NCBI GenBank assembly: GCA_050250375.1
Contig: JBFWOS010000001.1
Span: 1,086,361 to 1,150,360, forward strand
Length of the DNA: 64,000 nucleotides
Direction: 5' to 3'
Source: Candidatus Omnitrophota bacterium
GTDB taxonomy: Bacteria; Omnitrophota; Gorgyraeia; Zapsychrales; Zapsychraceae
The position numbers and the translations under genes were made by a program. The notes beneath the pieces are model-generated. The model saw nothing but the letters and a program-made list of their open reading frames with translations, was not told where the DNA came from and searched no databases. Shown here piece after piece: positions 738 to 62,828 of the stretch (position 1 is the stretch's first letter; the number at the start of each line of letters is the position of its first letter).

Positions 738-3434
738 TCAACTTAATATGACTTGTAATTTGACTTCCTCCGCTGATTTCTCAATTAGACTTCGCTCGAC
801 CATGAATGACACTGGCTGTCCCTGCTTCACAGGTAATGAATGGTCATTCAACCGAACGGCCTCGATTGTATAATCGCCGAAATCTTTTAATGATTTATTT
901 ATATATTCCACATCCAATCTCTTTCCGGCAAAGCTGCACTGGATTGATGCCTGACCATCCGCACTAAACTGTTCCCTGACCAATTTCGGGGACACCATTA
1001 AATGACCGTTTGAACCAAAGACCCCGAACATCTGTGTCAGCACCGTTAAGACAAGCCAGCTGGCCGAACCTGTCAGGTAATGATACATCCCACGCCCCTG
1101 CGAATCAAAATACTCCGGAATCCCGGGATAAATCCAGCTCTTATCTGTATCCATCGACATATTAAAAATAGATTGGAGGACTTCATATCCTTCACGGACA
1201 AAACCTTGTTTGTACAGGGCGAAGGCGTACATGACAATCATGTGGCTGAAAAATGCGCCGTTTTCTTTTGTCCCGAATGCAAAACCGAAAGCACGCCCCA
1301 AATCAAGATAATGAGAGATCTTAAAATCCGAATTGAGCCGATAGCCTCCCAACTCTTTATCTTTAAGAAATTGTTCTACCGCGGCAATCACTTGTTTGAC
1401 TTCATTTTCTTTTGCCAGTCCACTCATCAACGGGAATACCTGCCCGGTTAACGTCATCCTGGCCGTCTTCCCGACCAAACCTTCAACCTGCATCCCTTTG
1501 TTATCGTAATAGCCGTTGAACCACGTCAAATTTGAAACGGTCACCTTCTCCTGATGCCGGATATGATCAAAAATCCACTGCCCTTTTTTTCGCAAGTCAC
1601 TGACGATATCTTTTATTTTGATAGTAACTTTGTCCCCCGAAATCCTGGGTTCCACGGAATTAAAATACTTCTCAAAGAGTAACGTTCTTTTTTCCTGAAC
1701 GCTGTCATAATCAATCGGAGTATTAAACGTGTCCATTAACAAAGACAGTTCTTTGGCCAATGCTAATTCATGAATGTTTGATTCCCCGGACAAATGTTCG
1801 AGCATCTTGGCCAGCTGAAGCATATTCCCGGCATATTGACTGGCAAAGGCCACGCTTTCACCGCGTTCAAAGGCCATATCGAGCCCGTCATTCCAGTCCG
1901 CATTTTCCAGGCGGATAATATTATGTTCCCCCACATTATAAAACTGGACCAAATGCTGGACGAGAAGATGTTCGACAACCGTGCCTTCATAAATATCGTT
2001 ATTGATATCTCTTAACTTATTTTCGTTATCCGCAACCCACTGGCCGTCTTTTTTAAAATTCCTGGATAACTGGCGGTCTTTGAAATATGAGTTTGTTTCC
2101 AATAAGATATCAAAATCACCCGTCTGGTGGATATAAAGAAACAATGTCATCAACGGCCAGACCCCGTGGTCCATCCACACCCTTGATATGGCATTGCGGT
2201 CTGCAATAAATTCCCCCGGATTGGTCCCGATGATCGTTGCATTGGATCCGTCAATCCGGACACCGGCAAAATTGTTCAGCAGGGTCTCTTTGACCTGATG
2301 CGGCTCGATAAGGATCAGCGACAATAAATCCTGCCAGATATCCCTCCACCCTTTCCCCCCTTTTCCGTAATCATGATCCGGAAGGAATGAACACCCGAAA
2401 ATTCTTCGCAGGACCGGCTGCAAAACGACCCATCGCATCCAGGAATTAAAATCTTTATCCTGCGTCTTAACAACAACCGAATCCGTTTTCTTGATCCAGT
2501 ACGTCCGGTTCTCCATAAAAGCATTGTTGAATTGTTCAGAAAATTTAAACCGGTTGAACACGTCCATCGCCTGATTTTCATCAGCCGCGATTCCGATCAT
2601 GACAAAATATGTTTTTGATTCGTTCGGATTAAGCGTAAGATCATAAAACCTTACGGCTCCTACGGCTTCCTTGCCCTGCAAAGCACGGTCTTCCAGATCG
2701 GCCGGTTCATTATTGCGCAAAACAGCCTCAGGCCGTATAAAATCGCCTGCATATCCGCAAAAACTTTCGACTGTCGGAAAGGTCCCTTTAATCGGCTGTC
2801 CGCTGTCTTCAATTCCGAAAACAAAATAAACGTCACTATTGGCGGCATGTCCTTTTTCATTAAATTTCATCGTTGGGCATACCAATACCCCGTGCTCAAA
2901 CTGTTTTATGCGGTTAAGCAAACTGGTCACATGCTCGTGGTCATGTTTATTCGACAAAGAACGGGCGAACAGCGGAACAGCGACTGTCGGAGTCATTGAT
3001 TGGGGCGTTCCCGACTGATTGGTGACCACCACCCTCATCAATTCAACATTTTCTCCGCTAACCGGGATAAAGTTTAATACTTCAACCGAAATCTGCGATT
3101 GTGAGTCAAACTTAGAGACTTTATGCCATAACGGACCGGCCTCAACCTTGATGGCATTCGGATCACCGTGGGGGTCAGCTATACTGAAAATACCATTATT
3201 GATATTGAGATAAACGTTACGCAACGGCTGGCGCAGATCTTCCGTGGAAACCGGTTTTGTCAGGTAACGGTCTTTATCAAGCTTAATATCTCCTGATAAA
3301 AATGCCGTGATGGAAGATTTTAAATGATTGGATGTCGGGCCACACAACGGAAAATACATTGTACGGTTAAACCCGGCCTTTTCAGATTTGAAAGAAATCT
3401 GGTCTCCATAATAGTTATACAAAGGATGTGGCAT
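738..3434 (-). CDS. GH94-like glycoside phosphorylase (cellobiose/chitobiose phosphorylase superfamily; could be GH149/GH161-type)
   Basis: 898 aa. The (alpha/alpha)6-barrel region contains ENADWNDGLDMAFERGESV, matching the DWNDG catalytic-acid motif of cellobiose-phosphorylase-type enzymes. Length and multi-domain layout fit. It sits next to a sugar SBP. Confidence 0.55.
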   Translation of the reverse strand: MPHPLYNYYGDQISFKSEKAGFNRTMYFPLCGPTSNHLKSSITAFLSGDIKLDKDRYLTKPVSTEDLRQPLRNVYLNINNGIFSIADPHGDPNAIKVEAGPLWHKVSKFDSQSQISVEVLNFIPVSGENVELMRVVVTNQSGTPQSMTPTVAVPLFARSLSNKHDHEHVTSLLNRIKQFEHGVLVCPTMKFNEKGHAANSDVYFVFGIEDSGQPIKGTFPTVESFCGYAGDFIRPEAVLRNNEPADLEDRALQGKEAVGAVRFYDLTLNPNESKTYFVMIGIAADENQAMDVFNRFKFSEQFNNAFMENRTYWIKKTDSVVVKTQDKDFNSWMRWVVLQPVLRRIFGCSFLPDHDYGKGGKGWRDIWQDLLSLILIEPHQVKETLLNNFAGVRIDGSNATIIGTNPGEFIADRNAISRVWMDHGVWPLMTLFLYIHQTGDFDILLETNSYFKDRQLSRNFKKDGQWVADNENKLRDINNDIYEGTVVEHLLVQHLVQFYNVGEHNIIRLENADWNDGLDMAFERGESVAFASQYAGNMLQLAKMLEHLSGESNIHELALAKELSLLMDTFNTPIDYDSVQEKRTLLFEKYFNSVEPRISGDKVTIKIKDIVSDLRKKGQWIFDHIRHQEKVTVSNLTWFNGYYDNKGMQVEGLVGKTARMTLTGQVFPLMSGLAKENEVKQVIAAVEQFLKDKELGGYRLNSDFKISHYLDLGRAFGFAFGTKENGAFFSHMIVMYAFALYKQGFVREGYEVLQSIFNMSMDTDKSWIYPGIPEYFDSQGRGMYHYLTGSASWLVLTVLTQMFGVFGSNGHLMVSPKLVREQFSADGQASIQCSFAGKRLDVEYINKSLKDFGDYTIEAVRLNDHSLPVKQGQPVSFMVERSLIEKSAEEVKLQVILS

Positions 3435-3541
3435 TATTTGAAGTTCTTCGAATTATTGTGTTTTCATCCTGAATTAAACTTTGGAAAGTTTATCACGGCT
3501 GGGCAAGTCAGGTCAAGATTAAATAATACAGATTAGTTTAT

Positions 3542-3898
3542 TTATTGAGATATGGCGTTAGCGTGGAATTTATAAAGGCGGGCCATGCGTAAAAGTTCAA
3601 TTTTATGGAACTTCAATCCGATTTCCCAGAAATTTGCAGCGGTCTTCTTGATCCAGACGACTTCCCCCCGTAAATCCATCGGAGCCAAACCGTCCGGCAG
3701 ATCAATCTCTAAAGCGATCTTATCATTTAAAAAAAGGCGGTCTTTAGTTGTGAATTGCGCCCCGAAGGCAGACGCATTTCGCAGATAAACATTTTCTCCG
3801 AACGGTTCTCGTTCATCCTTGAATTTGGCGGGATAACGGGCTGAAAACCGCTCAAATAAACGCCGGTCATCTTTACGGATTTCTTCAAACATATCCAT
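3542..3898 (-). CDS. PilZ domain protein (c-di-GMP receptor)
   Basis: RxxxR motif (DDRRLFERF) plus N/DxSxxG motif (RNASAFGAQF). 118 aa single-domain PilZ. Confidence 0.6.
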   Translation of the reverse strand: MDMFEEIRKDDRRLFERFSARYPAKFKDEREPFGENVYLRNASAFGAQFTTKDRLFLNDKIALEIDLPDGLAPMDLRGEVVWIKKTAANFWEIGLKFHKIELLRMARLYKFHANAISQ

Positions 3899-3904
3899 AT
3901 TGTT

Positions 3905-4231
3905 TTATTTATGAAAATATTTTTGCAGACGGGCTTTGGAACCACGCATCACATCTTCAAATGTGACACCGATACGGTAATTGGATGATCCTGAAATTGC
4001 CCTGGCCCAAAGGACCCGGCCGATAACCAATACGGGCAAATCTTCTTCGCCTAAATCAAGTTCTATCGGAATTCGTTTATTAACAGGAATGCGGCGGGGA
4101 GAAACAAATCCGAGGCCTCCCTTGCTGATATCAATCACATTGCTGGAATCAAAAATACCGCCTTTTTTTCCATCAACGGGCACTTCACAACTCAATCTTT
4201 TATTTCTGCGTTTATTTAATTCTTTGTTCAT
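3905..4231 (-). CDS. PilZ domain protein (c-di-GMP receptor), tandem paralog
   Basis: KRRNKRLSCEV (RxxxR) and DISKGGLGF (DxSxGG). 108 aa. Confidence 0.6.
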   Translation of the reverse strand: MNKELNKRRNKRLSCEVPVDGKKGGIFDSSNVIDISKGGLGFVSPRRIPVNKRIPIELDLGEEDLPVLVIGRVLWARAISGSSNYRIGVTFEDVMRGSKARLQKYFHK

Positions 4232-4423
4232 AATAAGAAAATTAGACTTGGTTCCTTTAACCTTGCTTTTAGTCTAACAAGGTTGCTGAAATTTTCAATC
4301 AATATCTGAAAAAATTTTGACCTTGAATTTGTTTTTGGAATTAATAAAGCGACTACAGCTTTATTAGTTCAAATATAAAACAGTTTGTACGCAATTTCAA
4401 TAGCGGTTTCGGAATTTATTCAA

Positions 4424-4448
4424 AATATTGACCTTTTTGGTCAATATT
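4424..4448. promoter_or_regulatory. Perfect 10-5-10 palindrome, candidate operator or RNA hairpin
   Basis: aatattgacc-ttttt-ggtcaatatt. A further ttgacc half-site lies at ~4312. Located between the GT9 gene end and the PilZ pair, ~190 nt upstream of the PilZ start. Confidence 0.35.
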
Positions 4449-4474
4449 TTCTCTCGTCCGGACAATTTTTCATT

Positions 4475-5674
4475 TTATTTCATAAAAACCGAATCGTAGA
4501 CCTGTTCGGGTGAAATATCTTTTAAGCACAAATTATCCCGGCACGCCGAGTTGCGATGGTTAAAAACGGACAGACAAGGAGAACACGGGATTCCTGAATA
4601 AAATATTGTAATACGTTCACCGAGCGGCGCAAAGATCTTGGGAGTTTCCGGCCCAAAAAGGACAAATTGCCTGACTTTTGTCAATGCCGCCAGATGCGCC
4701 ATCCCGGAATCGTTCACAACCAAGGCTTTTGACACCGACATGAGGGCCAATAATTCCTGCAATGTTGTCTGCCCCATCAGATTAATGCACCTTTGGGGAT
4801 GATTTTGTGTTTGGGTGATCTGTTTTGCGCGTTCCGCCTTATCTTGCTGCCCGACAATCAACACATAGGTGTTATCGTGCGAAAGGATCTTTGTAACCAG
4901 CCGGGTAAAATACTCTAAAGGCCACTCCCTCAAAGGGATACGCCCTTCTCCCGGACATATCAGATAAATCTCCGCGGTTGCGTCAACCCCCAGGCCATTC
5001 AATTTTTTGTACAGAGATTTTTCCTGCTCTTTCGTATGTTGAAAAGAAACCAGATCAAAGCGGTTATCCTCTTTGAGAATTTCAGGCGACAACTTTTCGT
5101 TCTTTTCGACTGCCGTTCCCATCAGCAAATACATTTCACTGACATGGAGATGCGGATTGTATTGAATCTTATGTGTCAGCAGATCTCCGCGGTAAACCCC
5201 TTCAATTGTATACCGATGAAAGCCGACCCGTTTAAAAGCACCGCTCAGATAAGAAAGAATGGCTGTAAACCTGGAAAAAAATTCTAAATCAATCACGACA
5301 TCAAATTTTTCTTTACGTATCTTCCATAATAAGACAAATACACCTTTTACAAAAGCGGCGGGTGAACTTTCATCAATGGTCCACACATGGACTGGAATGG
5401 ATGGAACGAACACCTCAAATAGTTCCCGGTTACTTTTAAATGTTAAATAATGCAGTTCTGCTTGCGGATATTTTGTGTTCAACTTTTTAAGTAGGGGATA
5501 AGATAAAATGATCGCTCCGAGTTCCGATGGCTTGATGAACAAGATCTTAGACGGATCCTTTAGATCGCGGGAATCCGGAAAAAACAGACTCAATATCTTA
5601 TGCCATAACGTCAATATAAAACAAACGGGAATACCGATCAAATAATCCACCCGTTTCATAAATGTAAATCCCAT
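4475..5674 (-). CDS. Glycosyltransferase family 9 (heptosyltransferase-like)
   Basis: GT9 architecture. C-terminal VVNDSGMAHLAAL matches the conserved (D/N)SGxMHLAAA heptosyltransferase motif. There is an extra Cys-rich C-terminal tail. Confidence 0.7.
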   Translation of the reverse strand: MGFTFMKRVDYLIGIPVCFILTLWHKILSLFFPDSRDLKDPSKILFIKPSELGAIILSYPLLKKLNTKYPQAELHYLTFKSNRELFEVFVPSIPVHVWTIDESSPAAFVKGVFVLLWKIRKEKFDVVIDLEFFSRFTAILSYLSGAFKRVGFHRYTIEGVYRGDLLTHKIQYNPHLHVSEMYLLMGTAVEKNEKLSPEILKEDNRFDLVSFQHTKEQEKSLYKKLNGLGVDATAEIYLICPGEGRIPLREWPLEYFTRLVTKILSHDNTYVLIVGQQDKAERAKQITQTQNHPQRCINLMGQTTLQELLALMSVSKALVVNDSGMAHLAALTKVRQFVLFGPETPKIFAPLGERITIFYSGIPCSPCLSVFNHRNSACRDNLCLKDISPEQVYDSVFMK

Positions 5675-38355: not shown

Positions 38356-38586
38356 TTATTGGTAGCAAATGCCGGAGAAAACCGAAGCACCACCGGGCGT
38401 ACTTCCTGTATTCACCCAATTCGTGGTTGTCCCGCCACAGGCGGTAGGCCCCAAAGATGTCGCCAGCGATAACGTCGCGCATTGGGCTTGCACATCTTTC
38501 GGTTCAGACAGGACAACATAGCCAAAAAGACTTACAAAGACCATATATATGATTAGCAGCGAATAAATTATTCTATCTTTGTTCAT
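38356..38586 (-). CDS. Small secreted Cys-rich peptide, paralog 3
   Basis: 76 aa. Signal peptide ending VQA-Q. Mature peptide with 3 Cys, Thr/Gly/Ser-rich. Confidence 0.5.
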   Translation of the reverse strand: MNKDRIIYSLLIIYMVFVSLFGYVVLSEPKDVQAQCATLSLATSLGPTACGGTTTNWVNTGSTPGGASVFSGICYQ

Positions 38587-38601
38587 ATTAAAGCCCCTAG
38601 C

Positions 38602-38862
38602 TTAATTTTGAAAACATAAATATGCGTTAATCGGCACACCGTATGGTCCCGCAGTATATCCCATAATTTGTGGACCACTGGGCTGAGCCGTGCCCGGACA
38701 ACCTGGTATACATCCGGCACCTGTACAGGTTTCAATCGTTATTTGAAAACACGTAGTCTGGGCATTGACAATACTTGGTTTATATAAAACCGCATAAAGA
38801 AGCAAATAAACGAATACCATCGTCGTTGAAATGAACATATATATGGTTCGTTTTCTATTCAT
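38602..38862 (-). CDS. Small secreted Cys-rich peptide, paralog 2
   Basis: 86 aa. Signal peptide ending VNA-Q. Mature peptide QTTCFQITIETCTGAGCIPGCPG... with 5 Cys. Confidence 0.55.
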   Translation of the reverse strand: MNRKRTIYMFISTTMVFVYLLLYAVLYKPSIVNAQTTCFQITIETCTGAGCIPGCPGTAQPSGPQIMGYTAGPYGVPINAYLCFQN

Positions 38863-38876
38863 AAAAAATAACCTTT

Positions 38877-39140
38877 TTATGGATTAAAGCATAAACCTGT
38901 TTTCATCTGTACTCCATATACACCAGGGGTGTATCCACTATTGACAATATCCGATGATAATAAACCGTTCAATGGACATATAGGTGTACACGTTGCTCCT
39001 ATGCATGTTGCTAGGGTGATTCTATAACACACCTGCGCTTCAACTTCTTTTGGTTTACTCAAAAAAGAATATAAAAAAGTATACGCCGCAACAATCATCA
39101 CTGGAATAAATAAATAGATCAAACGCCTTTTAGACATCAT
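38877..39140 (-). CDS. Small secreted Cys-rich peptide, paralog 1
   Basis: 87 aa. Sec-type signal peptide (n-region KRR, h-region, cleavage-like VEA-Q). Mature ~52 aa with 5 Cys, Thr/Gly-rich. Confidence 0.55.
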   Translation of the reverse strand: MMSKRRLIYLFIPVMIVAAYTFLYSFLSKPKEVEAQVCYRITLATCIGATCTPICPLNGLLSSDIVNSGYTPGVYGVQMKTGLCFNP

Positions 39141-39219: not shown

Positions 39220-40563
39220 TTAAGGTTGACAGGCTCCCCCCGGACAATTCGCAGCACCGGCACAACAATCACCATTATTTACCCCTCCGACACAAACACC
39301 GGTTTGACCCGGAAGACAACAATATGGTCCTCCTGGAGCCCCGCCGCCGACACAGTTATTACTACAGCAATCCGCAGGAACCGCACAATCAATTCCATTT
39401 GGAGTACAGGATCCAGCCGTATCAAACTGGCAACACCCTAGAACTTCTTGATTCCCTGCATTACAGCCACTTATATCTGCTACACCAGTTCCACACGCAT
39501 TCTGTTGAACAGCCATACAACAATATCCGCCCCCTCCAATCCATTCACACCAAGGAAAAAATTCACATCTGGCAAAACGATTGTCGATGGCCGGTGTAGG
39601 ATATAACAAAGCCACGTTTGTTAAAAAAGATGTGCATGGCGTGTGTTCTTGACAGCCGCTGAACGGATTCCAATTGCAGGCAGATCCATAAATCTGTTCA
39701 CATTGGTCAAAGGGTAAGCCCACGCAACCTGTTGGTTCAGGGGGGGCGGGCGGGGGTATTCGTACACCGCAATCACCGGCCGAAAGCGTACAATCTATAA
39801 TACACACACCTAAAATATTGATTGATCCCGACGGACATTCACAGGATGTTGCCCCAAAACCCGGAACAAACGAAGTCGCACATTCCCACTGACATTTGGG
39901 TGCACTCCCGACAGGAGCACTGCACTTACCTTCTTCAACAAAAACAACATTCTGACTGGCAGGCAAATTGATATTGTCTTGAGGACAGATGTCCGTAGCG
40001 TATTCAGGGTCTCCTGGATTGGGTGGATTTAAACATTGATTTAAACAATTTCTATTAAATTGGCATTCCACTCGGGTGGGATTGTTGTGATCAGGATCGC
40101 CCCCGCAAGAATATAAGGCAGGAACCTCATCGGCGGCACATCCCTGAGTACCGCAATTAATTGGCACAGGCAATTGAACGGGCGTGGTACAACAAGCCGG
40201 CGTTTCAGTACATAAATAATTTAAGCCGCCCGGAGGGGAATTATAACCCAGAGGATTACAAATCCATGCTTGAGTGGCTTCGTATTCTTCACATGTTCCA
40301 TAACCGCAACATGGCGGTAAACTGCATGGTTCTTGATAACTACAAGTCCCGGTAACATCGATGACTCCAGGGGGACTTGCCCCGATTGGATCTTGGAAGG
40401 AATCTGTGACAGAGTCCTCCCAGCCTTTGATATTGGCATTCCAAGAACGGATTACGTAAGGGCTCATGACATAAACCCCGGCCAGGACTAAAATAATCAA
40501 AAGGGCATATTCAATAATACTCTGCCCTTTTTCAGAAAACAATTTTTGAAAAAGCTTCCGCAT
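39220..40563 (-). CDS. Flp-pilin-like (class III signal peptide-like) N-terminus fused to a ~400-aa Cys/Pro/Gly-rich extracellular domain
   Basis: N-terminus KGQSIIEYALLIILVLAGVYV fits the Flp motif G-x4-EY followed by a hydrophobic helix. The rest has >50 Cys (CC, CxC, CxxC patterns) and low hydrophobicity. Confidence 0.5.
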   Translation of the reverse strand: MRKLFQKLFSEKGQSIIEYALLIILVLAGVYVMSPYVIRSWNANIKGWEDSVTDSFQDPIGASPPGVIDVTGTCSYQEPCSLPPCCGYGTCEEYEATQAWICNPLGYNSPPGGLNYLCTETPACCTTPVQLPVPINCGTQGCAADEVPALYSCGGDPDHNNPTRVECQFNRNCLNQCLNPPNPGDPEYATDICPQDNINLPASQNVVFVEEGKCSAPVGSAPKCQWECATSFVPGFGATSCECPSGSINILGVCIIDCTLSAGDCGVRIPPPAPPEPTGCVGLPFDQCEQIYGSACNWNPFSGCQEHTPCTSFLTNVALLYPTPAIDNRFARCEFFPWCEWIGGGGYCCMAVQQNACGTGVADISGCNAGNQEVLGCCQFDTAGSCTPNGIDCAVPADCCSNNCVGGGAPGGPYCCLPGQTGVCVGGVNNGDCCAGAANCPGGACQP

Positions 40564-40693: not shown

Positions 40694-43600
40694 CTATAGA
40701 CTTTGATGGCATTGAAGCAATACATCCGCTCCTAATTTCCAGCAATGATACAGGTCTCCCAGGAACGCCGCTGGACACGGAGCCCCTTCATTTATTGTAT
40801 AGCCGGGATACCCGGAGAAAGCCGCCCCGCAGGCAGGAGAGAATGGAATCAACTGTGTTGTTTGCTGAATTTTAATCCATTCCCCGTCCTCCGCACAAGC
40901 ACCCGCATCAACTGAATACCCGGAATTACATTGATATTCACATTTTGGAGCCCCGCAGGTAATCACCAGAGATCTGTTCATATTCGTCCCACCCGGGATA
41001 TTCGTATCATCCCCGGAACAATATGCTGCATTGGCCGGTACGCTACCGATACAAATATTCGGGTCGCACACTCCACCGCCGTCATGATATGTATCCGTGC
41101 AGATGTATTCACATTTCGTTCCAACCGTGCACGCAGGCACAACCGTTCGTGGCACGTCGGAATTGCCGGGGATATTAGCATCGTCTCCGGAACATATTGT
41201 TGTGTTTGCAGGCACAGCTCCTATACATTGGTTAAGATTGGTACACCCTGAACCATCGAAATTAAATCCGTCATCACAAATATATTCACATTTTGTTCCA
41301 GCAGTACAAGCTGCCACGACCGTGCGCCCGACATCAGCATTCCCCGGAATATTGATATCATCTCCGGAACAAATCGTCGCATTAATTGGAATAGCCCCTG
41401 TACATATATTTACATCACATGAAGCCCCTCCGAAATTATATCCATCATTACAAATATATTCACATTTAGTTCCAGCCGTACAAGCACCCACCAGAGTACG
41501 GGAAACATCAGAATTGCCCGGGATATTTGTTCCGTCACCGGAACATATGGACGCGTTGGAAGGAGTTGCTCCTGTACAGACATTGACATCACATTGGTTG
41601 GCTCCTCCGTCGTGATATCCGCTGTTGCAAGTATACTCACACAAAGTTACTGTACAAGCCGATACGGTTGTAACCGGCGTATCCGCCAATAATCCGGTGT
41701 TATCTCCCGGACAAATCAGTGCGTTCGCATCAGGTGTTCCTGTACACATGAACGGACGGCACGTGTTCGCGTCTTTGGTAAATCCCGGATCACAGGTGTA
41801 TTCACACTTTGTTCCGCCGGTACATGCATTCGCCACGGTCCGGCCGACATTTAAATTTCCCGGAATGTTTGTATCATCTCCGCTGCATAACGTCGCGTTG
41901 GATGGAACCGTTCCGGTACAAATATTGACGTCACAAACCCCACCGGACTCGTGGAATCCGTCATTACACAAATATTGACAATAAATCGGCAACGTACAAG
42001 CGCCTACGGCCGTGCGGACAACGTCCGAGTTCCCAGGAATTCCGGTATCGTCCCCTGCACAGAGTGTTGCGTTTGACGGAACAGTCCCCGTACAGGCATT
42101 TAAATCACACACCCCGGCGTCATAATTGTATCCGTTGCTGCAGGTATATTCACATTTTGTTCCAATCGTACAGACCGGAACCAAAGTTCGAGCCACATCA
42201 CTGTTCCCAGGAATATTCGTGCCATCCCCCGTACACAATCCCGCATTTGGCGGTACCGCCCCGGTACAGACATTGGCCACACAAATCGTTCCGTTAAAAT
42301 TGAAACCACTGCTGCAGGTATATTCACATTTTGTTCCGGCCGTACAAGCCGCCACCAAGGTTCGGGTAACATCACCATTACCGGGAATATTAATGTTATC
42401 CCCGATACACAAAGTTGCATTAGCCGGCGGCGCTCCGGTACAAACATTGGCATCACATTGATTAATTCCGGCGTCCTTATATCCGCTGTTGCATGTATAT
42501 TCACACATCGTTGCTGTACAGGCTGATACTGTTGTGACCGGCGTATCCGCCAGTAACCCAATATTATCTCCCGGACAGATGGTTGAATTCGAAGCCGGGG
42601 TGCCGATACAATCAAACGTTTCCACCACACAAGCTGTACCGGCGAGATTTAATTCATATCCGGGGTCACAAATGTATTCACACTTGGTCGCTGTACAAGC
42701 GCCAACAAGTGTTAAAGCTAAATTGGCCCTTCCGGTTATATTGGTCCCATCCCCCGCACACAATGTTGCATTAGACGGCGCTGATCCGGTACAAACATTA
42801 ACGTCACACTGGTTAACCCCCGCATCATGATATTCCGTGTTACACCGGTATTCACATTTTGTACCAAACGTACAGGTATTTACCGTCGAAACTGACACAT
42901 CCACGGTCAATCCTGCATTATCTCCAGCACACAGTACAGAATTCGGATCAGGCACTCCGGTACATGCCGGCGCACGACAATCGTTTCCATCAAGAACAAA
43001 ACCGGCATTACATTCATATTCACATTGTGTTCCGGCCGTACACCCTCCTGTAATAACGGCTGTTTTGGGAGTATTCGCCGGCAAATCATCATTATCATTC
43101 AGACAGATTGTGCTATTTGTCGGATCCGGGCCGGTACATAGATAAAGGGGAACACAGGTTATTCCACTGCGGACATAAAACGGCCGGCAGACATGCTCGC
43201 ACTTCACGGGCTGGGTACACGTATCGACTAAGGTATTCGGGGTGTCTGCTGTAAGGCCGGTATCATCCGGTTCGCATATGGTATCAAGATCATAATCGAC
43301 ACAGCACAAATTAGAATGGGCGGGTGCGGGACCGGTACATTGAAACAGAACACAGGCAGTACCATCACTGTAATATCCCGGGTCGCATAAATATTCACAT
43401 TTAGTTCCCGCTGTACATGCGCTGACCGGAGTCCGTGGAGTATCTGCACTTAAACCCGTATCATCGCCGGCACAGAGTGATGAATTAGTTGGAACAGCCC
43501 CGGTACAGACATACGGCACACAACTACCAGCGGAATAATAGTAACCGGCATTACAGCTATATTCACATTTTGTCGGGCCGGTACAAGAAGCAACAAGCGT

Positions 43601-44956
43601 AATCGGAACATCTCCTCTGGTCAGGCCGGCATTATCTCCCGAGCATATTGACGCGTTCGCCGGAGCTGCGCCGGTACAGACAAAAGTACAACTTCCACAG
43701 GTGTACTCATCTCCGCACGGGTTAATACTGCAATCTCCGGTATAATTATATCGGCAGTTTGAACCCGATACCTGACAACCGTCGCTTAAACTGACCGGAC
43801 AATCGGTATAACTGGCACAAGCCGGTGCGATCGCGTAACAGGCCTGAACCGGAGGTTCCAAACAATATCTGCATTCACCGGATGATAATTTTGTATAATC
43901 ATCGCATAAATATTCACATTTTGTTCCGGCCGTACAGGTCGCTACTGAAGAATTCGGTGTATTTGCTGTCAGTCCGGCATTATCTCCCGGGCATAAAGTA
44001 GAATTAATCGGGACCGCGCCGGTACAAGAACAAAAACCGCAATCGGCATTACAACTAAATCCACTGTTGACTGTCCCGCAAGTCTCCGTCCCGGTACAGC
44101 ACCCGTCCCCGCAGACATCGGTCGTGCAATCCCCAGGACAGGTACACTTATTTTCCACTCCGTTACAAATTAAATCCCCGCAAACCGGCACCGCGCAATC
44201 CGACGCACAGCTCACACTATCTTCCGTACCGTCGCATGTTCCGTCCCCGCAGCATGGCGAACAGCTCCCACACGTGCCGCATTGACCGGTGCAATCAAAA
44301 TGGGAATCCCCGCAGGAACACGCCCCGCATTCAACACAGGGATTATACCCCGGCCCGGCCCCGCCGGTGCAGTGTTCAGTACCGACAGCACAAAACCCGT
44401 CACCGCAGACAATCGGACAGGCCCCGCAGTCACTCGTACACATCGGGTCCCCTGTCTCCGGAGCAGGCAACATGCTATCGTTAGATCCGCAGCTTTCCTG
44501 AAAACCCCAATACGTTACGGCATTGGAACACACCCCATCACCGCAAGTCGGACATTCGGCCATAGTCACACCGAGAAATGAACCTCCCAGCACAGCGGCT
44601 TTAAAACTGTTCCACTGGGTCTGAGTCGCCGTGGGAATAAAATATTCTATAATGGACGTGTTGGATATATCCCAGCATTCCGCTTCACCAACATTAGGTG
44701 TTGTGTTGGAGGTATAACTCAAATTAATTCGTAGAGAAGGAATCGTTCCAAGACCTGCATTCCCATCGAGCATATATCCGCCGTTTTCCCATCCATAAAT
44801 CCGGCAGTTGACATTTCCTGACGGGCCGTCATCACAATAACATCCCGTAGCCGGCGGCACACAAGGATCACCGACCGCTGAAAATGCCGCAGAGGCAAAA
44901 CCCAGCATTATGGTTGTAATGAGACCGCCTATTTTTCCCCAAGAACGTTTTTTCAT
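40694..44956 (-). CDS. Giant secreted cysteine-rich repeat protein (about 17 tandem six-Cys modules of roughly 57 aa)
   Basis: N-terminal signal peptide (MKKRSWGKIGGLITTIMLGFASAAFSA). The repeat consensus is roughly CTGxxPxNxxLCxGDxxxIPGNxDVxRTxVxACTxGTKCEYxCxxGYxxDGxxCDVN. Many spurious overlapping ORFs on both strands come from the repetition. Confidence 0.8.
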   Translation of the reverse strand: MKKRSWGKIGGLITTIMLGFASAAFSAVGDPCVPPATGCYCDDGPSGNVNCRIYGWENGGYMLDGNAGLGTIPSLRINLSYTSNTTPNVGEAECWDISNTSIIEYFIPTATQTQWNSFKAAVLGGSFLGVTMAECPTCGDGVCSNAVTYWGFQESCGSNDSMLPAPETGDPMCTSDCGACPIVCGDGFCAVGTEHCTGGAGPGYNPCVECGACSCGDSHFDCTGQCGTCGSCSPCCGDGTCDGTEDSVSCASDCAVPVCGDLICNGVENKCTCPGDCTTDVCGDGCCTGTETCGTVNSGFSCNADCGFCSCTGAVPINSTLCPGDNAGLTANTPNSSVATCTAGTKCEYLCDDYTKLSSGECRYCLEPPVQACYAIAPACASYTDCPVSLSDGCQVSGSNCRYNYTGDCSINPCGDEYTCGSCTFVCTGAAPANASICSGDNAGLTRGDVPITLVASCTGPTKCEYSCNAGYYYSAGSCVPYVCTGAVPTNSSLCAGDDTGLSADTPRTPVSACTAGTKCEYLCDPGYYSDGTACVLFQCTGPAPAHSNLCCVDYDLDTICEPDDTGLTADTPNTLVDTCTQPVKCEHVCRPFYVRSGITCVPLYLCTGPDPTNSTICLNDNDDLPANTPKTAVITGGCTAGTQCEYECNAGFVLDGNDCRAPACTGVPDPNSVLCAGDNAGLTVDVSVSTVNTCTFGTKCEYRCNTEYHDAGVNQCDVNVCTGSAPSNATLCAGDGTNITGRANLALTLVGACTATKCEYICDPGYELNLAGTACVVETFDCIGTPASNSTICPGDNIGLLADTPVTTVSACTATMCEYTCNSGYKDAGINQCDANVCTGAPPANATLCIGDNINIPGNGDVTRTLVAACTAGTKCEYTCSSGFNFNGTICVANVCTGAVPPNAGLCTGDGTNIPGNSDVARTLVPVCTIGTKCEYTCSNGYNYDAGVCDLNACTGTVPSNATLCAGDDTGIPGNSDVVRTAVGACTLPIYCQYLCNDGFHESGGVCDVNICTGTVPSNATLCSGDDTNIPGNLNVGRTVANACTGGTKCEYTCDPGFTKDANTCRPFMCTGTPDANALICPGDNTGLLADTPVTTVSACTVTLCEYTCNSGYHDGGANQCDVNVCTGATPSNASICSGDGTNIPGNSDVSRTLVGACTAGTKCEYICNDGYNFGGASCDVNICTGAIPINATICSGDDINIPGNADVGRTVVAACTAGTKCEYICDDGFNFDGSGCTNLNQCIGAVPANTTICSGDDANIPGNSDVPRTVVPACTVGTKCEYICTDTYHDGGGVCDPNICIGSVPANAAYCSGDDTNIPGGTNMNRSLVITCGAPKCEYQCNSGYSVDAGACAEDGEWIKIQQTTQLIPFSPACGAAFSGYPGYTINEGAPCPAAFLGDLYHCWKLGADVLLQCHQSL
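40950..43750 (-). repeat. Intragenic tandem coding repeats (~170-nt period) inside the giant Cys-rich gene
   Basis: Recurrent nucleotide blocks such as ggtacaaaatgtgaatat / cggaacaaaatgtgaatatac visible every ~170 nt on the plus strand. Confidence 0.7.
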
Positions 44957-44988: not shown

Positions 44989-46170
44989 TCAGCGGGAAGA
45001 ATCCATTTCCATGCCGCGCTTGATTTGATTAATTTCTTTTCTCAAAGAATCAATCTCTTCACTTTGATGTTCGATCAATACCTGCTGTTCTTTAATCGCT
45101 TCAATCATCGGAGCGATCAAATTTCCGTATTTCACATATTTTCTGCCGGACGTTTCATCCGTATGAACCAACTCAGGATAAACTTTTTCGACATCCTGGG
45201 CGGTAATCCCGATATCCTGTTGGCCATTCTCTTTCCAGGTATAACTCAAACCTTCAATTTGTTTAATACCGCTCAACCCTAAAACCGGTTTAAAATTCTC
45301 CTTCAGACGGGCATCCGAAGAATATAAATAAGCATTCGCCGTAACGGTCCCGTTAACATCAAATTCGGTGGTCGGAGCGGCATTTAAAACCCCGATCCTC
45401 CGGGTAGATTGAAGGATCGTCAATAAATGGCTGGCATTATCCGCATCATAAACGTAAAATTGGGCCCCTCCGCCGATGTCACTGTGAACATCAAAACCAC
45501 CGCCAGGAGCTATGGCCAAATCACCGTTGGTCGTGGAAATCGCCGGATTTGCCCCGTTAAAAATCAAATCATTGGTCAACTCAACATCACCGTTGACCTC
45601 CAGCTCCGATGTAGGACTGGTTGTACCGATTCCGACATTTCCCGCACTTGTTATACCCAGACGAAACGCCTCAGCCCCTTCAGCACCGCCCCAAATTGAA
45701 AATCCGTCGGTCAAGCTGGTTTGATGCGCGCGCAATTCCCAAACGGAGTCGGCGGCATCTGTGTTCTGAATCCTGATCGCCGTAAAATCCGTAGCTGCGC
45801 TCTGAACATGCAGTTTGGTCGCCGGAATATTTGTCCCGATGCCTATATCTGCGGTAGACCATGATATGGGATAAAGATCCGTACCGTCCAAAGTCCATTC
45901 ACCAACAGAGTTGGTATAAGAAGTTCCGTCGCAAAACTGTAAATCCCCTGAAACATCAACATACATGGTCCCGGTCGTTGAAACGCTGCAAGCCGGTGGA
46001 GACGCATTCGGGGCCAGTCTTAATGATTGATATACACCAAAGGGAGACGGATAATACGTTGTCATCGTCAAAGTCTCTGCCTGGGCTAAAACCGGCATCA
46101 CCATCAAGGTGATGGTAAGCATCGTGATTCTATATTTTTTTATCATGTCCCTGCCTTTTTGTTGCGTCAA
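44989..46170 (-). CDS. Secreted fibre-like protein with C-terminal peptidase S74 intramolecular chaperone auto-processing domain
   Basis: Signal peptide (MIKKYRITMLTITLMVMPVLAQA). C-terminus SDARLKENFKPVLGLSGIKQIEGLSYTWKE...DIGITAQDVEKVYPELVH...YGNLIAPMIEAIKEQQ matches the SDxRxK...IGxIAQE chaperone-of-endosialidase/tail-fibre domain. Gly/Thr/Ser-rich middle. Confidence 0.7.
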   Translation of the reverse strand: MTQQKGRDMIKKYRITMLTITLMVMPVLAQAETLTMTTYYPSPFGVYQSLRLAPNASPPACSVSTTGTMYVDVSGDLQFCDGTSYTNSVGEWTLDGTDLYPISWSTADIGIGTNIPATKLHVQSAATDFTAIRIQNTDAADSVWELRAHQTSLTDGFSIWGGAEGAEAFRLGITSAGNVGIGTTSPTSELEVNGDVELTNDLIFNGANPAISTTNGDLAIAPGGGFDVHSDIGGGAQFYVYDADNASHLLTILQSTRRIGVLNAAPTTEFDVNGTVTANAYLYSSDARLKENFKPVLGLSGIKQIEGLSYTWKENGQQDIGITAQDVEKVYPELVHTDETSGRKYVKYGNLIAPMIEAIKEQQVLIEHQSEEIDSLRKEINQIKRGMEMDSSR

Positions 46171-46457
46171 AAAAAAACCTATCCTTCATCCAAGAAGAAT
46201 AGGCTTATCATTGACTATGATGCTGGCAACTGGCTATCCTAAAAAAACTAGGACCCTTTAGCTTTGTGCCCCACCTTCTCAGATGGTTTACCTTTTGCAT
46301 GTATTTTCTGTTCTCTAGTATATAAAGCATAACATACGCTCTTTTCATTTGCCAGATTACTTTAACATGGGTAATATTAGGATTGAACAAAAATGTCATA
46401 AATGTTATACTCGGTAAATCTTCGAAAAGTTCATAACTATAATCCTTTCAATAAAAA
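46171..46457. promoter_or_regulatory. Divergent intergenic region (likely promoters for the fibre gene and the cvpA-like gene)
   Basis: 287-nt AT-rich spacer between divergently oriented genes. No specific boxes verified. Confidence 0.3.
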
Positions 46458-62357: not shown

Positions 62358-62828
62358 TTAAGGTTTGGTAATGATAAAATGATAAAGAATATTACAAAGG
62401 AAAAAAGCCGTGAGAATTAATACAGCATAAAGTAAAAACTTAAACCGGGCTGATTGCCGTAGGAGGGTCAGCGCGTCATCAGCCTTGACAGAGCGGTACT
62501 TCAACCCCAGGACATAACGCACACCTGAAGGAGTTTCTTTTTTTTCATACCATGAAATCTGGGCAATCGCGTTAACGGGACGTTGCGATAATGGGAGATG
62601 AAACTTCAAGACAAGTAAAATATGCTGCTGGTTCAGATATTTGATGGTGGATTCACTCAGCGTATGGGTTTCCAGGCAAACTCCGCCCTTGCTGACATTG
62701 ACCGTGTGCCCTTTTTGACTGCCGACCCCCGGCAGGAGTATGTCCTGCTCATCCATCACGGAGAAATCAACGGGAATCTTTTGGGCAACCCTGAAATATT
62801 TTCTTTTTTCTGAAGTGACGTCGCTCAT
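62358..62828 (-). CDS. PilZ domain protein with C-terminal TM anchor
   Basis: EKRKYFRV (RxxxR-like), NVSKGGVCL (DxSxGG-like), C-terminal hydrophobic helix LLYAVLILTAFFLCNILYHFII. Confidence 0.5.
   Translation of the reverse strand: MSDVTSEKRKYFRVAQKIPVDFSVMDEQDILLPGVGSQKGHTVNVSKGGVCLETHTLSESTIKYLNQQHILLVLKFHLPLSQRPVNAIAQISWYEKKETPSGVRYVLGLKYRSVKADDALTLLRQSARFKFLLYAVLILTAFFLCNILYHFIITKP

Follow-up and report, generated by a model that had tools for sequence, protein, structure and literature searches.

A probable self-processing surface fibre of Omnitrophota, encoded behind a c-di-GMP-I class riboswitch

The 64,000-nucleotide (nt) stretch of DNA analysed here, called the window below, carries on its minus strand a Candidatus Omnitrophota gene for a protein that ends in a Peptidase_S74 domain, behind a leader that contains an aptamer of the class that binds cyclic di-GMP (c-di-GMP) and an intrinsic terminator. 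We consider it probable that the product is a self-processing surface fibre of the Omnitrophota cell itself, resembling the mosaic adhesive trimer (MAT) fibres of Bdellovibrio, and that its synthesis is turned off by c-di-GMP through the riboswitch. Coordinates are those of the window, and residues are numbered in the 385-amino-acid (aa) reading unless the 393-aa reading is named. The gene and its leader comprise the following features.

44989..46146, minus strand: coding sequence of the 385-aa fibre protein, stop codon included (orthologue alignment and NCBI model; translation verified)
46078..46146, minus strand: Sec-type signal peptide, aa 1-23, MIKKYRITMLTITLMVMPVLAQA/E, the slash marking the cut (hydropathy, AxA site, orthologue alignment)
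45844..46077, minus strand: conserved N-terminal module, aa 24-101, ETLTMTTYYPSPFGVYQSLRL...C...C...W (invariant columns, profile search)
45319..45843, minus strand: beta-rich shaft, aa 102-276, the portion left after the predicted cleavage (phmmer, Foldseek, motifs)
44992..45318, minus strand: Peptidase_S74 or intramolecular chaperone auto-processing (ICA) domain, aa 277-385 (Pfam, profiles, Foldseek)
46221..46301, minus strand: c-di-GMP-I (GEMM-I) class aptamer in the 5′ leader of the fibre gene (Rfam RF03167)
46166..46206, minus strand: intrinsic terminator with a 13-bp stem, 6-nt loop and U9 tract, the hairpin at 46175-46206 (terminator scan)

The list of open reading frames (ORFs) gives the gene as 44989..46170, a 393-aa reading that begins at a TTG at 46170, and an earlier note on this DNA had taken it in that form. 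The reading frame exists; the start does not hold. Because the TTG falls within the U-tract of the terminator hairpin, and because Met9 of the 393-aa reading is the start in all eleven close orthologues aligned, we place the start at the ATG at 46146, in agreement with the NCBI model, MGE0268491.1, an identical protein of 385 aa that is named 'tail fiber domain-containing protein'. The same note had proposed a Sec signal peptide, and here it was right: the hydropathy profile shows a basic n-region (KKYR), a hydrophobic core and an AQA/E site, and although the letters of the signal peptide vary among orthologues its position is fixed, an invariant mature N-terminus coming next. The structural model described below has a helix at aa 2-15 of this segment. 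The middle of the protein, which had been described as Gly/Thr/Ser-rich, has an Ala/Thr/Gly-rich composition instead (12/11/11%).

The C-terminal chaperone domain, the central claim of that note, lies where it had been put. Pfam assigns PF13884 (Peptidase_S74) to residues 285-336 of the 393-aa reading (E 1.1e-14, 54.9 bits, curated cutoff 22), and 33 PHROGs phage families, nearly all of them tail-fibre or baseplate proteins, match as well; most of these alignments set the last ~130 residues of the fibre protein against the phage families' own C-terminal ends. The Ser-Lys dyad that the note had associated with the domain is present in the SDxxxK form, as SDARLK at 285-290 of the 393-aa reading, which makes the dyad Ser277/Lys282 (codons 45316-45318 and 45301-45303). 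Both residues are invariant in 15 close relatives, in 60 diverse relatives and in a 22-sequence C-terminal alignment, and Asp278 is conserved in at least 90%. Searched against the PDB as a single sequence, the C-terminal domain retrieved just 6F45, weakly (E 0.038); a profile built from 22 sequences retrieved the S16 gp37 structure 6F45 (E 8e-18, SDRRIK), the MyRF ICA domain 7DC3 (E 4e-12, ADLRAK, the crystallised chain having Ala in place of the Ser), the tail fibre 8JOV (E 6e-11, SDERLK), T5 pb1 8HQZ (E 1.7e-4, S-x4-K) and the GA-1 neck appendage 3GUD (E 7e-4, SDERHK), so that the dyad is aligned to characterised domains. The 3GUD chain is a released chaperone whose residue 1 is a Ser aligned with Ser277, and this alignment predicts cleavage at the Ser276-Ser277 bond.

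An AlphaFold2 single-chain model, built on a 60-sequence alignment, has a mean predicted local distance difference test score (pLDDT) of 82, with block means of 79-97, mostly near or above 90, over aa 271-385. A C-terminal helix of 45 residues (aa 340-384) is modelled at block means of 88-97. The best structural superposition found by Foldseek is 7DC3, with a target-normalised template modelling (TM) score of 0.71 and a root-mean-square deviation of 2.4 Å over 143 columns that cover the C-terminal domain and the last turn of the shaft; 3GW6, the K1F endosialidase chaperone, was also retrieved. In the viral structure library BFVD, 476 matches pass E 1e-3, with S74/ICA proteins on top. The domain thus shares with the C-terminal intramolecular chaperone domains of phage (3GW6 of K1F endosialidase, 3GUD of GA-1, 4UW8/8HQZ of T5 pb1 and 6F45 of S16 gp37) its family, the spacing and position of Ser and Lys, and the C-terminal helix. 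The likeness to MyRF goes no further than domain and shaft turn, since MyRF is a eukaryotic membrane-bound transcription factor whose self-cleavage frees a nuclear fragment, an unrelated role. By homology, the S74 domain would be expected to template trimerisation and then to be released autoproteolytically through Ser277/Lys282.

Fibres of this kind are already known from bacterial chromosomes. Caulton et al. (2024; PMC10769870) described 21 chromosomal MAT fibres in Bdellovibrio bacteriovorus, each with a signal peptide followed by a conserved N-terminal domain that the authors presume to hold the fibre on the cell, then a trimeric beta-helical shaft and variable tips; 13 of the 21 end in an S74 domain with SDxxxK, Bd3182 was shown to cleave itself at that Ser, and the fibres were found on the predator surface (PMC10769870). 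Supplementary Table S3 of that paper even lists, among MAT proteins of predator-associated lineages, a 713-aa 'S74-like' protein of Ca. Omnitrophica, A0A2H0LB00, so the host-encoded S74 fibre class is a published one, for Omnitrophica too. Our literature searches on S74 fibres in Omnitrophota returned nothing beyond that paper and its supplementary table.

The shaft of the window protein points to the same class. In the PDB, the sequence that the whole protein matches best comes not from a phage but from B. bacteriovorus, and is that of the Bd2133 fibre, 8OND (phmmer, E 7.1e-9), in an alignment that sets GNVGIGTTSPTSELEV of the fibre protein opposite GNVGIGATAPTAKLEV of Bd2133. Foldseek with the model returned 8OND, 8OML, 8ONC and 8ONB at probability 1.0, and its matches include the Bd2133, Bd1334, Bd3182 and Bd2439 fibres. 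Three capping-loop-like motifs of the form [IV]G[IV]xxxxPxxx[LF]xV punctuate the shaft at aa 101, 171 and 251, reading IGIGTNIPATKLHV, VGIGTTSPTSELEV and IGVLNAAPTTEFDV. The mature chain predicted to remain after cleavage, aa 24-276, has 253 aa and a mass of about 25 kDa. The window holds neither a second S74 domain nor a second N-terminal module, and NCBIfam has no match for the fibre or for its two large neighbours.

Since S74 domains were first described on endosialidases, one of which (3GW6) is among the Foldseek matches, and since the clefts of S74 beta-helices bind O-antigen in phage proteins (PMC10769870), the protein could be imagined as a secreted, tailspike-like depolymerase whose beta-helical part degrades polysaccharide on another cell, the S74 domain being a maturation device. 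We think this very unlikely. Pfam and NCBIfam give no glycosidase or lyase family match, the shaft is only ~175 aa long and matches fibre shafts rather than catalytic domains, and the conserved N-terminal module suggests that the protein is retained on the cell.

That module, 78 aa with the motif YYPSPxGxY and two invariant Cys, is covered by neither Pfam nor NCBIfam. Its T, Y, P, S, P, G, V and Y and both Cys are invariant even in relatives of 34-39% overall identity. A HMMER profile of the module, searched against 1.84 billion cluster representatives, found 1,870 of them at E<=1e-3 (737 at E<=1e-10), and in almost all of these proteins the module begins at about residue 20-45, straight after the signal peptide. 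The proteins are about 100 to 720 aa long, apart from one of 4,874 aa. Among 141 representatives searched with Pfam, 25 carry Peptidase_S74, 9 YadA_head, 3 Peptidase_G2 (another autoproteolytic chaperone domain) and 1 UspA1_rep; most of the remainder have no Pfam match, and none has one over the module itself. An exact-motif scan of species-representative genomes confirmed 168 loci. The best 79 of these 168 belong mostly to Candidatus Omnitrophota, the others to Elusimicrobia and to metagenome-assembled genomes (MAGs) labelled Planctomycetia; in some MAGs there are as many as five module loci among these 79, and none of the 79 is from Bdellovibrio, which is not decisive. The N-terminal module family is undescribed and is an addition of the present analysis. 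From its place we presume that it is the cell-proximal anchor, in which the two invariant Cys may form a disulfide.

Two members of the family, P0121 (721 aa) and P0232 (4874 aa), have several internal matches to profile positions ~17-74 only, away from the signal peptide, which suggests that a Cys-containing sub-module may also exist as an internal repeat.

The sequence family of the C-terminal domain makes it necessary to ask whether the gene is a prophage remnant, or a domesticated phage tail-fibre gene with no function of its own in the host. In favour of such an origin are the 33 PHROGs, which match by the C-terminal ~130 aa only, the name given to the protein by NCBI, and a GC content that is slightly up at 40-46 kb (0.46-0.50 against ~0.42). 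Its surroundings speak otherwise. We scanned every window ORF of >=150 aa with Pfam, together with 10-kb extensions past both edges, and between about -55 kb and +28 kb found no gene for a capsid, terminase, portal, tail tube, baseplate or integrase, in line with what the earlier note had reported for the neighbourhood and had left to be checked in the parent contig; the 10 kb past each edge hold metabolic, transport and regulatory genes only. On the upstream side (~46.4-64 kb) the first genes encode a divergent CvpA-like membrane protein, MnmE, a Mur-ligase-family protein, PurH and a DJ-1/PfpI protein, followed by lysine 2,3-aminomutase, an ATP-grasp enzyme of D-Ala-D-Ala ligase type, MgtE and an HhH-GPD glycosylase, and then by YjeF_N, Era, a PfkB kinase and an M48 peptidase. 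Downstream (lower coordinates) the Cys-rich genes are joined by four GT-C (PMT_2/YfhO) membrane glycosyltransferases and a large number of radical-SAM enzymes with B12-binding and SPASM domains, and farther on by GDSL-TPR proteins, DegT, SDR, GT2, GT9 and a GH94 enzyme. The two downstream neighbours of the fibre gene have no PHROGs match.

The arrangement is also conserved. In what follows, L001, L003, L004, L005, L006, L008 and L009 are orthologous loci, and L007 and L017 contain distant relatives. The order MnmE, CvpA-like gene on the opposite strand, gap of ~300 nt and S74 fibre gene is kept in L001, L003, L004, L005 and L006, and the fibre proteins of these five syntenic Omnitrophota loci are 56-65% identical; that the same chromosomal position is held at this level of protein identity argues for vertical inheritance of a host locus. 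Virion proteins are normally without a Sec signal peptide, and the phage S74 proteins compared above are virion components that lack one and are encoded among structural genes, whereas the Omnitrophota fibre is predicted to be Sec-exported, sits in a housekeeping context and is predicted to be under a riboswitch that responds to a host second messenger. The raised GC content, for its part, appears to coincide with Cys/Gly/Thr/Ala-rich coding sequence. We regard a prophage origin of this kind as extremely improbable and reject it on context and synteny. A component of an extracellular contractile injection system, a tailocin or a type VI secretion system was likewise considered and rejected, there being no sheath, tube or baseplate genes present.

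The riboswitch had been overlooked in the earlier note. A scan of the whole window with Rfam at gathering thresholds returned exactly one match, RF03167 (59.5 bits, gathering 59, E 1.7e-11), placed between the divergent promoter region and the start codon of the fibre gene. All eight orthologous loci scanned have the aptamer; the canonical model RF01051 matches the leaders of L001, L003, L004, L005, L006, L008 and L009 at 49.5-63.6 bits (gathering 35). The window aptamer carries an A, CACAAAGC, at the column that is G in the consensus of the GGC variant, and we take this A to be the variant-defining A47 of Vibrio Vc2 numbering. On this mapping the ligand contacts G20 and A47 are canonical, which makes c-di-GMP the probable ligand.

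Eight orthologous leaders, comprising six distinct sequences, were folded, and each has a strong intrinsic terminator (stem of 10-13 bp, tract of U7-9) behind the aptamer. It starts 14-20 nt past the aptamer, and the start codon comes ~20-75 nt past the terminator stem (28 nt in the window). When the 3′ arm of the terminator is barred from pairing, the 5′ arm, GCCUAUUCUUCUC, is joined in the minimum-energy fold to the first hairpin of the aptamer, AUCUGAGAAGGUGGGGC. This antiterminator fold was found in eight of eight of the same leaders; its duplex has an energy of -17 to -23.5 kcal/mol, which only 0-15 of 500 shuffles of the arm could match. In L003 there is a compensatory change in which the aptamer strand goes from A to G, the 5′ arm from U to C and the 3′ arm from A to G at matching positions. 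Aptamer and terminator are compatible and aptamer and antiterminator are not, which predicts termination when ligand is bound, or an OFF switch.

In score over the gathering threshold, in a terminator as expression platform and in its association with a surface or adhesion gene, the element resembles other GEMM-I riboswitches (RF01051/RF03167). What sets it apart is the gene it precedes: our literature searches found no publication that ties a c-di-GMP riboswitch to S74 fibres or to Omnitrophota, and the conserved c-di-GMP riboswitch ahead of an S74 fibre gene is an addition of the present analysis. It is not a general property of the N-terminal-module family. When distant module-bearing loci were scanned the aptamer was found only in the orthologues and in L017, and the other paralogues were without a riboswitch. 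Genes for PilZ-domain proteins, which are c-di-GMP receptors, occur in the same genome at 62358..62828 and, as two more, between the GT9 and GH94 genes. In L004 (13449-14136) and L088 two tandem small PilZ genes likewise stand before GH94, in a place that corresponds to the window gap at 3434-4475.

The distant relative in L017, TAN62294.1, is a 490-aa fibre (2872-4344) that shares the N-terminal module and has an S74 domain with SDARLK; just before SDARLK it has a repeat pattern like that of bulb lectins (QDDGNVVLY / QDDANLVIYD), which Pfam does not call. A GEMM-I-class aptamer lies upstream of this fibre gene (2722-2808, RF03167, 62 bits), with an A at what we take to be the Vc2 G20 position, presumably the signature reported for GEMM-Ib aptamers selective for cyclic GMP-AMP (cGAMP). 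PilZ, MshEN-PilZ and response-regulator genes are immediately upstream of it.

The genes that come after the fibre gene bear on what the fibre might do. The earlier note had put the fibre gene at the end of a module of Cys-rich surface-protein genes; on the coding strand it is the first (5′) gene of that module, and it opens a conserved run consisting of the following.

40694..44956, minus strand: 1420-aa signal-peptide protein, 11% Cys, 32 nt past the fibre stop codon (co-oriented; weak Sushi/CCP Pfam match)
39220..40563, minus strand: 447-aa Cys-rich protein with a Flp/TadE-like N-terminus, G/QSIIEYALLI, and a hydrophobic helix (sequence)
38356..39140, minus strand: three paralogous small ORFs of 87, 86 and 76 aa, each with an N-terminal hydrophobic segment and then a Cys-rich peptide of ~45 aa

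No terminator-like site was found between the fibre stop codon and the 1420-aa gene. The 1420-aa protein consists of a Cys-dense N-terminal region and ~17 tandem four-Cys repeats of ~65 aa, with the consensus CTGxxPxNAxxCxGDxxxIPGNxDVxRTxVxACTxGTKCEYxCxxGY..., and the weak Pfam match is its sole database match. Counterparts of 1431-1919 aa come after the fibre gene in L001, L003, L005 and L006, directly or past one 63-aa ORF; L004 has a 419-aa Cys-rich protein in place of the giant one. The hydrophobic segments of the three small ORFs end in ...EAQ, NAQ and QAQ, and the number and size of these ORFs are kept in L001, L003 and L006. They lie upstream of the long run of B12-binding and SPASM radical-SAM genes, and GT-C glycosyltransferase genes come after them. 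A promoter-like site at 39193-39165 (11/12 match) may start a sub-operon. The conserved partnership of the fibre with Cys-rich and pilin-like proteins is a further addition of this analysis.

Seven orthologues and paralogues show strict conservation of the N-terminus of the 447-aa protein, G/QSIIEYALLIILVLAGV, a sequence similar to the class III (Flp/TadE) prepilin motif. The Cys-rich relatives (~373-450 aa) share G/QS[IM][IV]EY[AS]LLI and the hydrophobic helix, and by this resemblance may be large pilin-like proteins. They are found in L001 (15609-16955), L003 (17024-18145 and 18254-19600), L004 (10641-11879), L005 (15191-16333 and 16447-17059, the latter running off the end of the locus) and L006 (13610-14947). 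These neighbours raise the question of whether the fibre is an accessory or tip protein of a Tad/Flp-type pilus, displayed on it or assembled with it. Several observations would fit: a weak Class_IIIsignal match on the gene upstream of the distant S74 homologue in L007, the fusion of several Patescibacteria S74 homologues to PilV-type PF04917, and the wide occurrence of Tad and type-4a pili in Omnitrophota (PMC10066038). We nevertheless consider a pilus protein unlikely. The signal of the fibre is of Sec type with an AxA site and is not that of a prepilin, Pfam gives no pilin match for the N-terminus of the 447-aa neighbour even at E<=1, and the window holds no gene for an assembly ATPase, platform or secretin; moreover, as far as the family has been examined, with its loci not seen in detail, most module-bearing members are without such neighbours.

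The domain PF04917 (Shufflon_N, the N-terminal region of PilV type IV pilin) occurs together with S74 in the proteins P0030, P0043, P0059, P0071, P0091, P0104 and P0118, of which the only one with a named source is from Patescibacteria (Paceibacterota). Such pilin-S74 fusions suggest that self-processing fibres are displayed on pili.

The same neighbours could also be read as parts of a coat. The fibre would then be a non-adhesive strut of the envelope or surface layer, in which S74 is a mere folding device, and would join the Cys-rich proteins and the GT-C glycosyltransferases in making a glycoprotein layer. In favour of a coat are the shortness of the mature part (253 aa), in which no binding domain can be recognised, the secreted proteins of very high Cys content and the four membrane glycosyltransferases (PMT_2/YfhO) encoded behind the fibre gene, and the place of the locus in a conserved core gene order. 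Three points make us judge this, too, to be improbable, and to about the same degree as a pilus protein: (i) relatives with the same module carry YadA head repeats or UspA1 repeats, and L017 has the bulb-lectin-like pattern that Pfam leaves uncalled; (ii) GEMM-I c-di-GMP riboswitches typically control conditionally expressed adhesins, pili and motility genes, and not constitutive parts of the envelope; and (iii) L004 keeps the fibre while the downstream partners differ.

We therefore favour, as the probable reading, a MAT-like fibre that Omnitrophota make for their own surface. The precursor would be exported by Sec, with removal of the 23-aa signal peptide. Three chains would assemble, the S74/ICA domain (aa 277-385) nucleating both trimerisation and folding of the shaft, and Ser277, activated by Lys282, would then cut the Ser276-Ser277 bond to release the chaperone. 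A short mature fibre (aa 24-276) would stay behind, its distal end newly exposed and its N-terminal module holding the cell envelope, where it could serve in adhesion. When c-di-GMP is bound to the aptamer, the terminator should form and transcription stop; with no ligand, the 5′ arm of the terminator would pair with the first hairpin of the aptamer and allow read-through into the fibre gene, and probably on into the Cys-rich surface-protein genes, as one operon. The fibre would accordingly be made when c-di-GMP is low. The earlier proposal of a host-encoded, self-processing, trimeric surface fibre is upheld in this form, with trimerisation, self-cleavage and surface exposure suggested by homology.

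The parallels with MATs run along the whole protein. Both are chromosomally encoded, with a signal peptide and, straight after it, a constant module; in both the shaft is a beta-helix with capping-loop motifs, and that of the window protein matches Bd2133 by sequence and Bd2133, Bd1334 and Bd3182 by fold; and the S74 domain with SDxxxK is C-terminal in both. Both families are also present in multiple copies per genome, with S74 and non-S74 members that combine a constant N-terminus with interchangeable adhesin parts. There are also differences: the Omnitrophota protein has ~385 aa against ~1000 aa for a MAT, it begins with the 78-aa YYPSPxGxY module with two Cys, which may or may not be a homologue of the MAT N-terminal domain of ~130 aa, its gene is linked to Cys-rich and Flp-like neighbours, and that gene is preceded by a riboswitch, a word that is absent from the supplementary text of PMC10769870 (the main text was not searched).

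Some of these differences, together with several other points, count against the reading we favour. The mature fibre, at 253 aa, is far shorter than the Bdellovibrio MATs and has no recognisable ligand-binding tip. Its N-terminal module, only possibly a homologue of the MAT N-terminal domain, is modelled at moderate confidence (pLDDT 53-80), and the fibre would need a route across the outer membrane. Trimerisation and cleavage are predictions by homology. As for the switch, the window aptamer is just 0.5 bit over the gathering score of RF03167, the top-ranked variant model, the assignment of its ligand (c-di-GMP or a related dinucleotide) is made from the aptamer letters, and the case for OFF polarity consists of folding energies and a single compensatory event.

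The module could be used as a handle in the search for the adhesins of these phyla, with ~1,870 clusters, several per genome, and with S74, YadA-like and other C-termini. The Omnitrophota are uncultured, mostly ultra-small and suspected of being predatory or symbiotic, and the evidence cited so far for such lifestyles consists of pili and giant ORFs (PMC10066038). For their cell-cell contact, the conserved gene of a MAT-like fibre now provides a concrete molecular candidate, and one that c-di-GMP is predicted to switch by way of an RNA element. We speculate, as a doubtful extension, that the locus is the core of a c-di-GMP-gated host-attachment apparatus: at low c-di-GMP, in a free and host-seeking state, ultra-small Omnitrophota would make the S74 fibre with its YYPSPxGxY anchor, a disulfide-rich scaffold and pilin-like proteins, and would use them to capture prey or host cells. 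It would be a counterpart of the MAT system in which both the anchor and the RNA switch are different, and the anchor module would head a large set of exchangeable trimeric adhesins specific to the lineage, spread over Omnitrophota, Elusimicrobia and related MAGs. In a larger context, the gene would be a further case in which the so-called tail-fibre chaperone acts as a general means by which cellular organisms fold trimeric fibres, and not as a marker of phage DNA, and since NCBI names the protein for tail fibres, this bears on both prophage prediction and annotation.

Two minor observations concern neither the fibre nor its leader. The region at ~7.7-29.6 kb of the window, on the minus strand, contains at least seven radical-SAM genes, three with called B12-binding domains and one with a SPASM domain, interleaved with genes for GDSL-lipase/TPR fusions, a DegT aminotransferase, an SDR and glycosyltransferases, and looks like a large island for modification of envelope glycans or lipids. 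In another Omnitrophota MAG, at L043, an unrelated group I intron (RF00028, 54.1 bits against a gathering score of 50) lies on the minus strand at 5079-5274, ~2 kb from an N-terminal-module gene.

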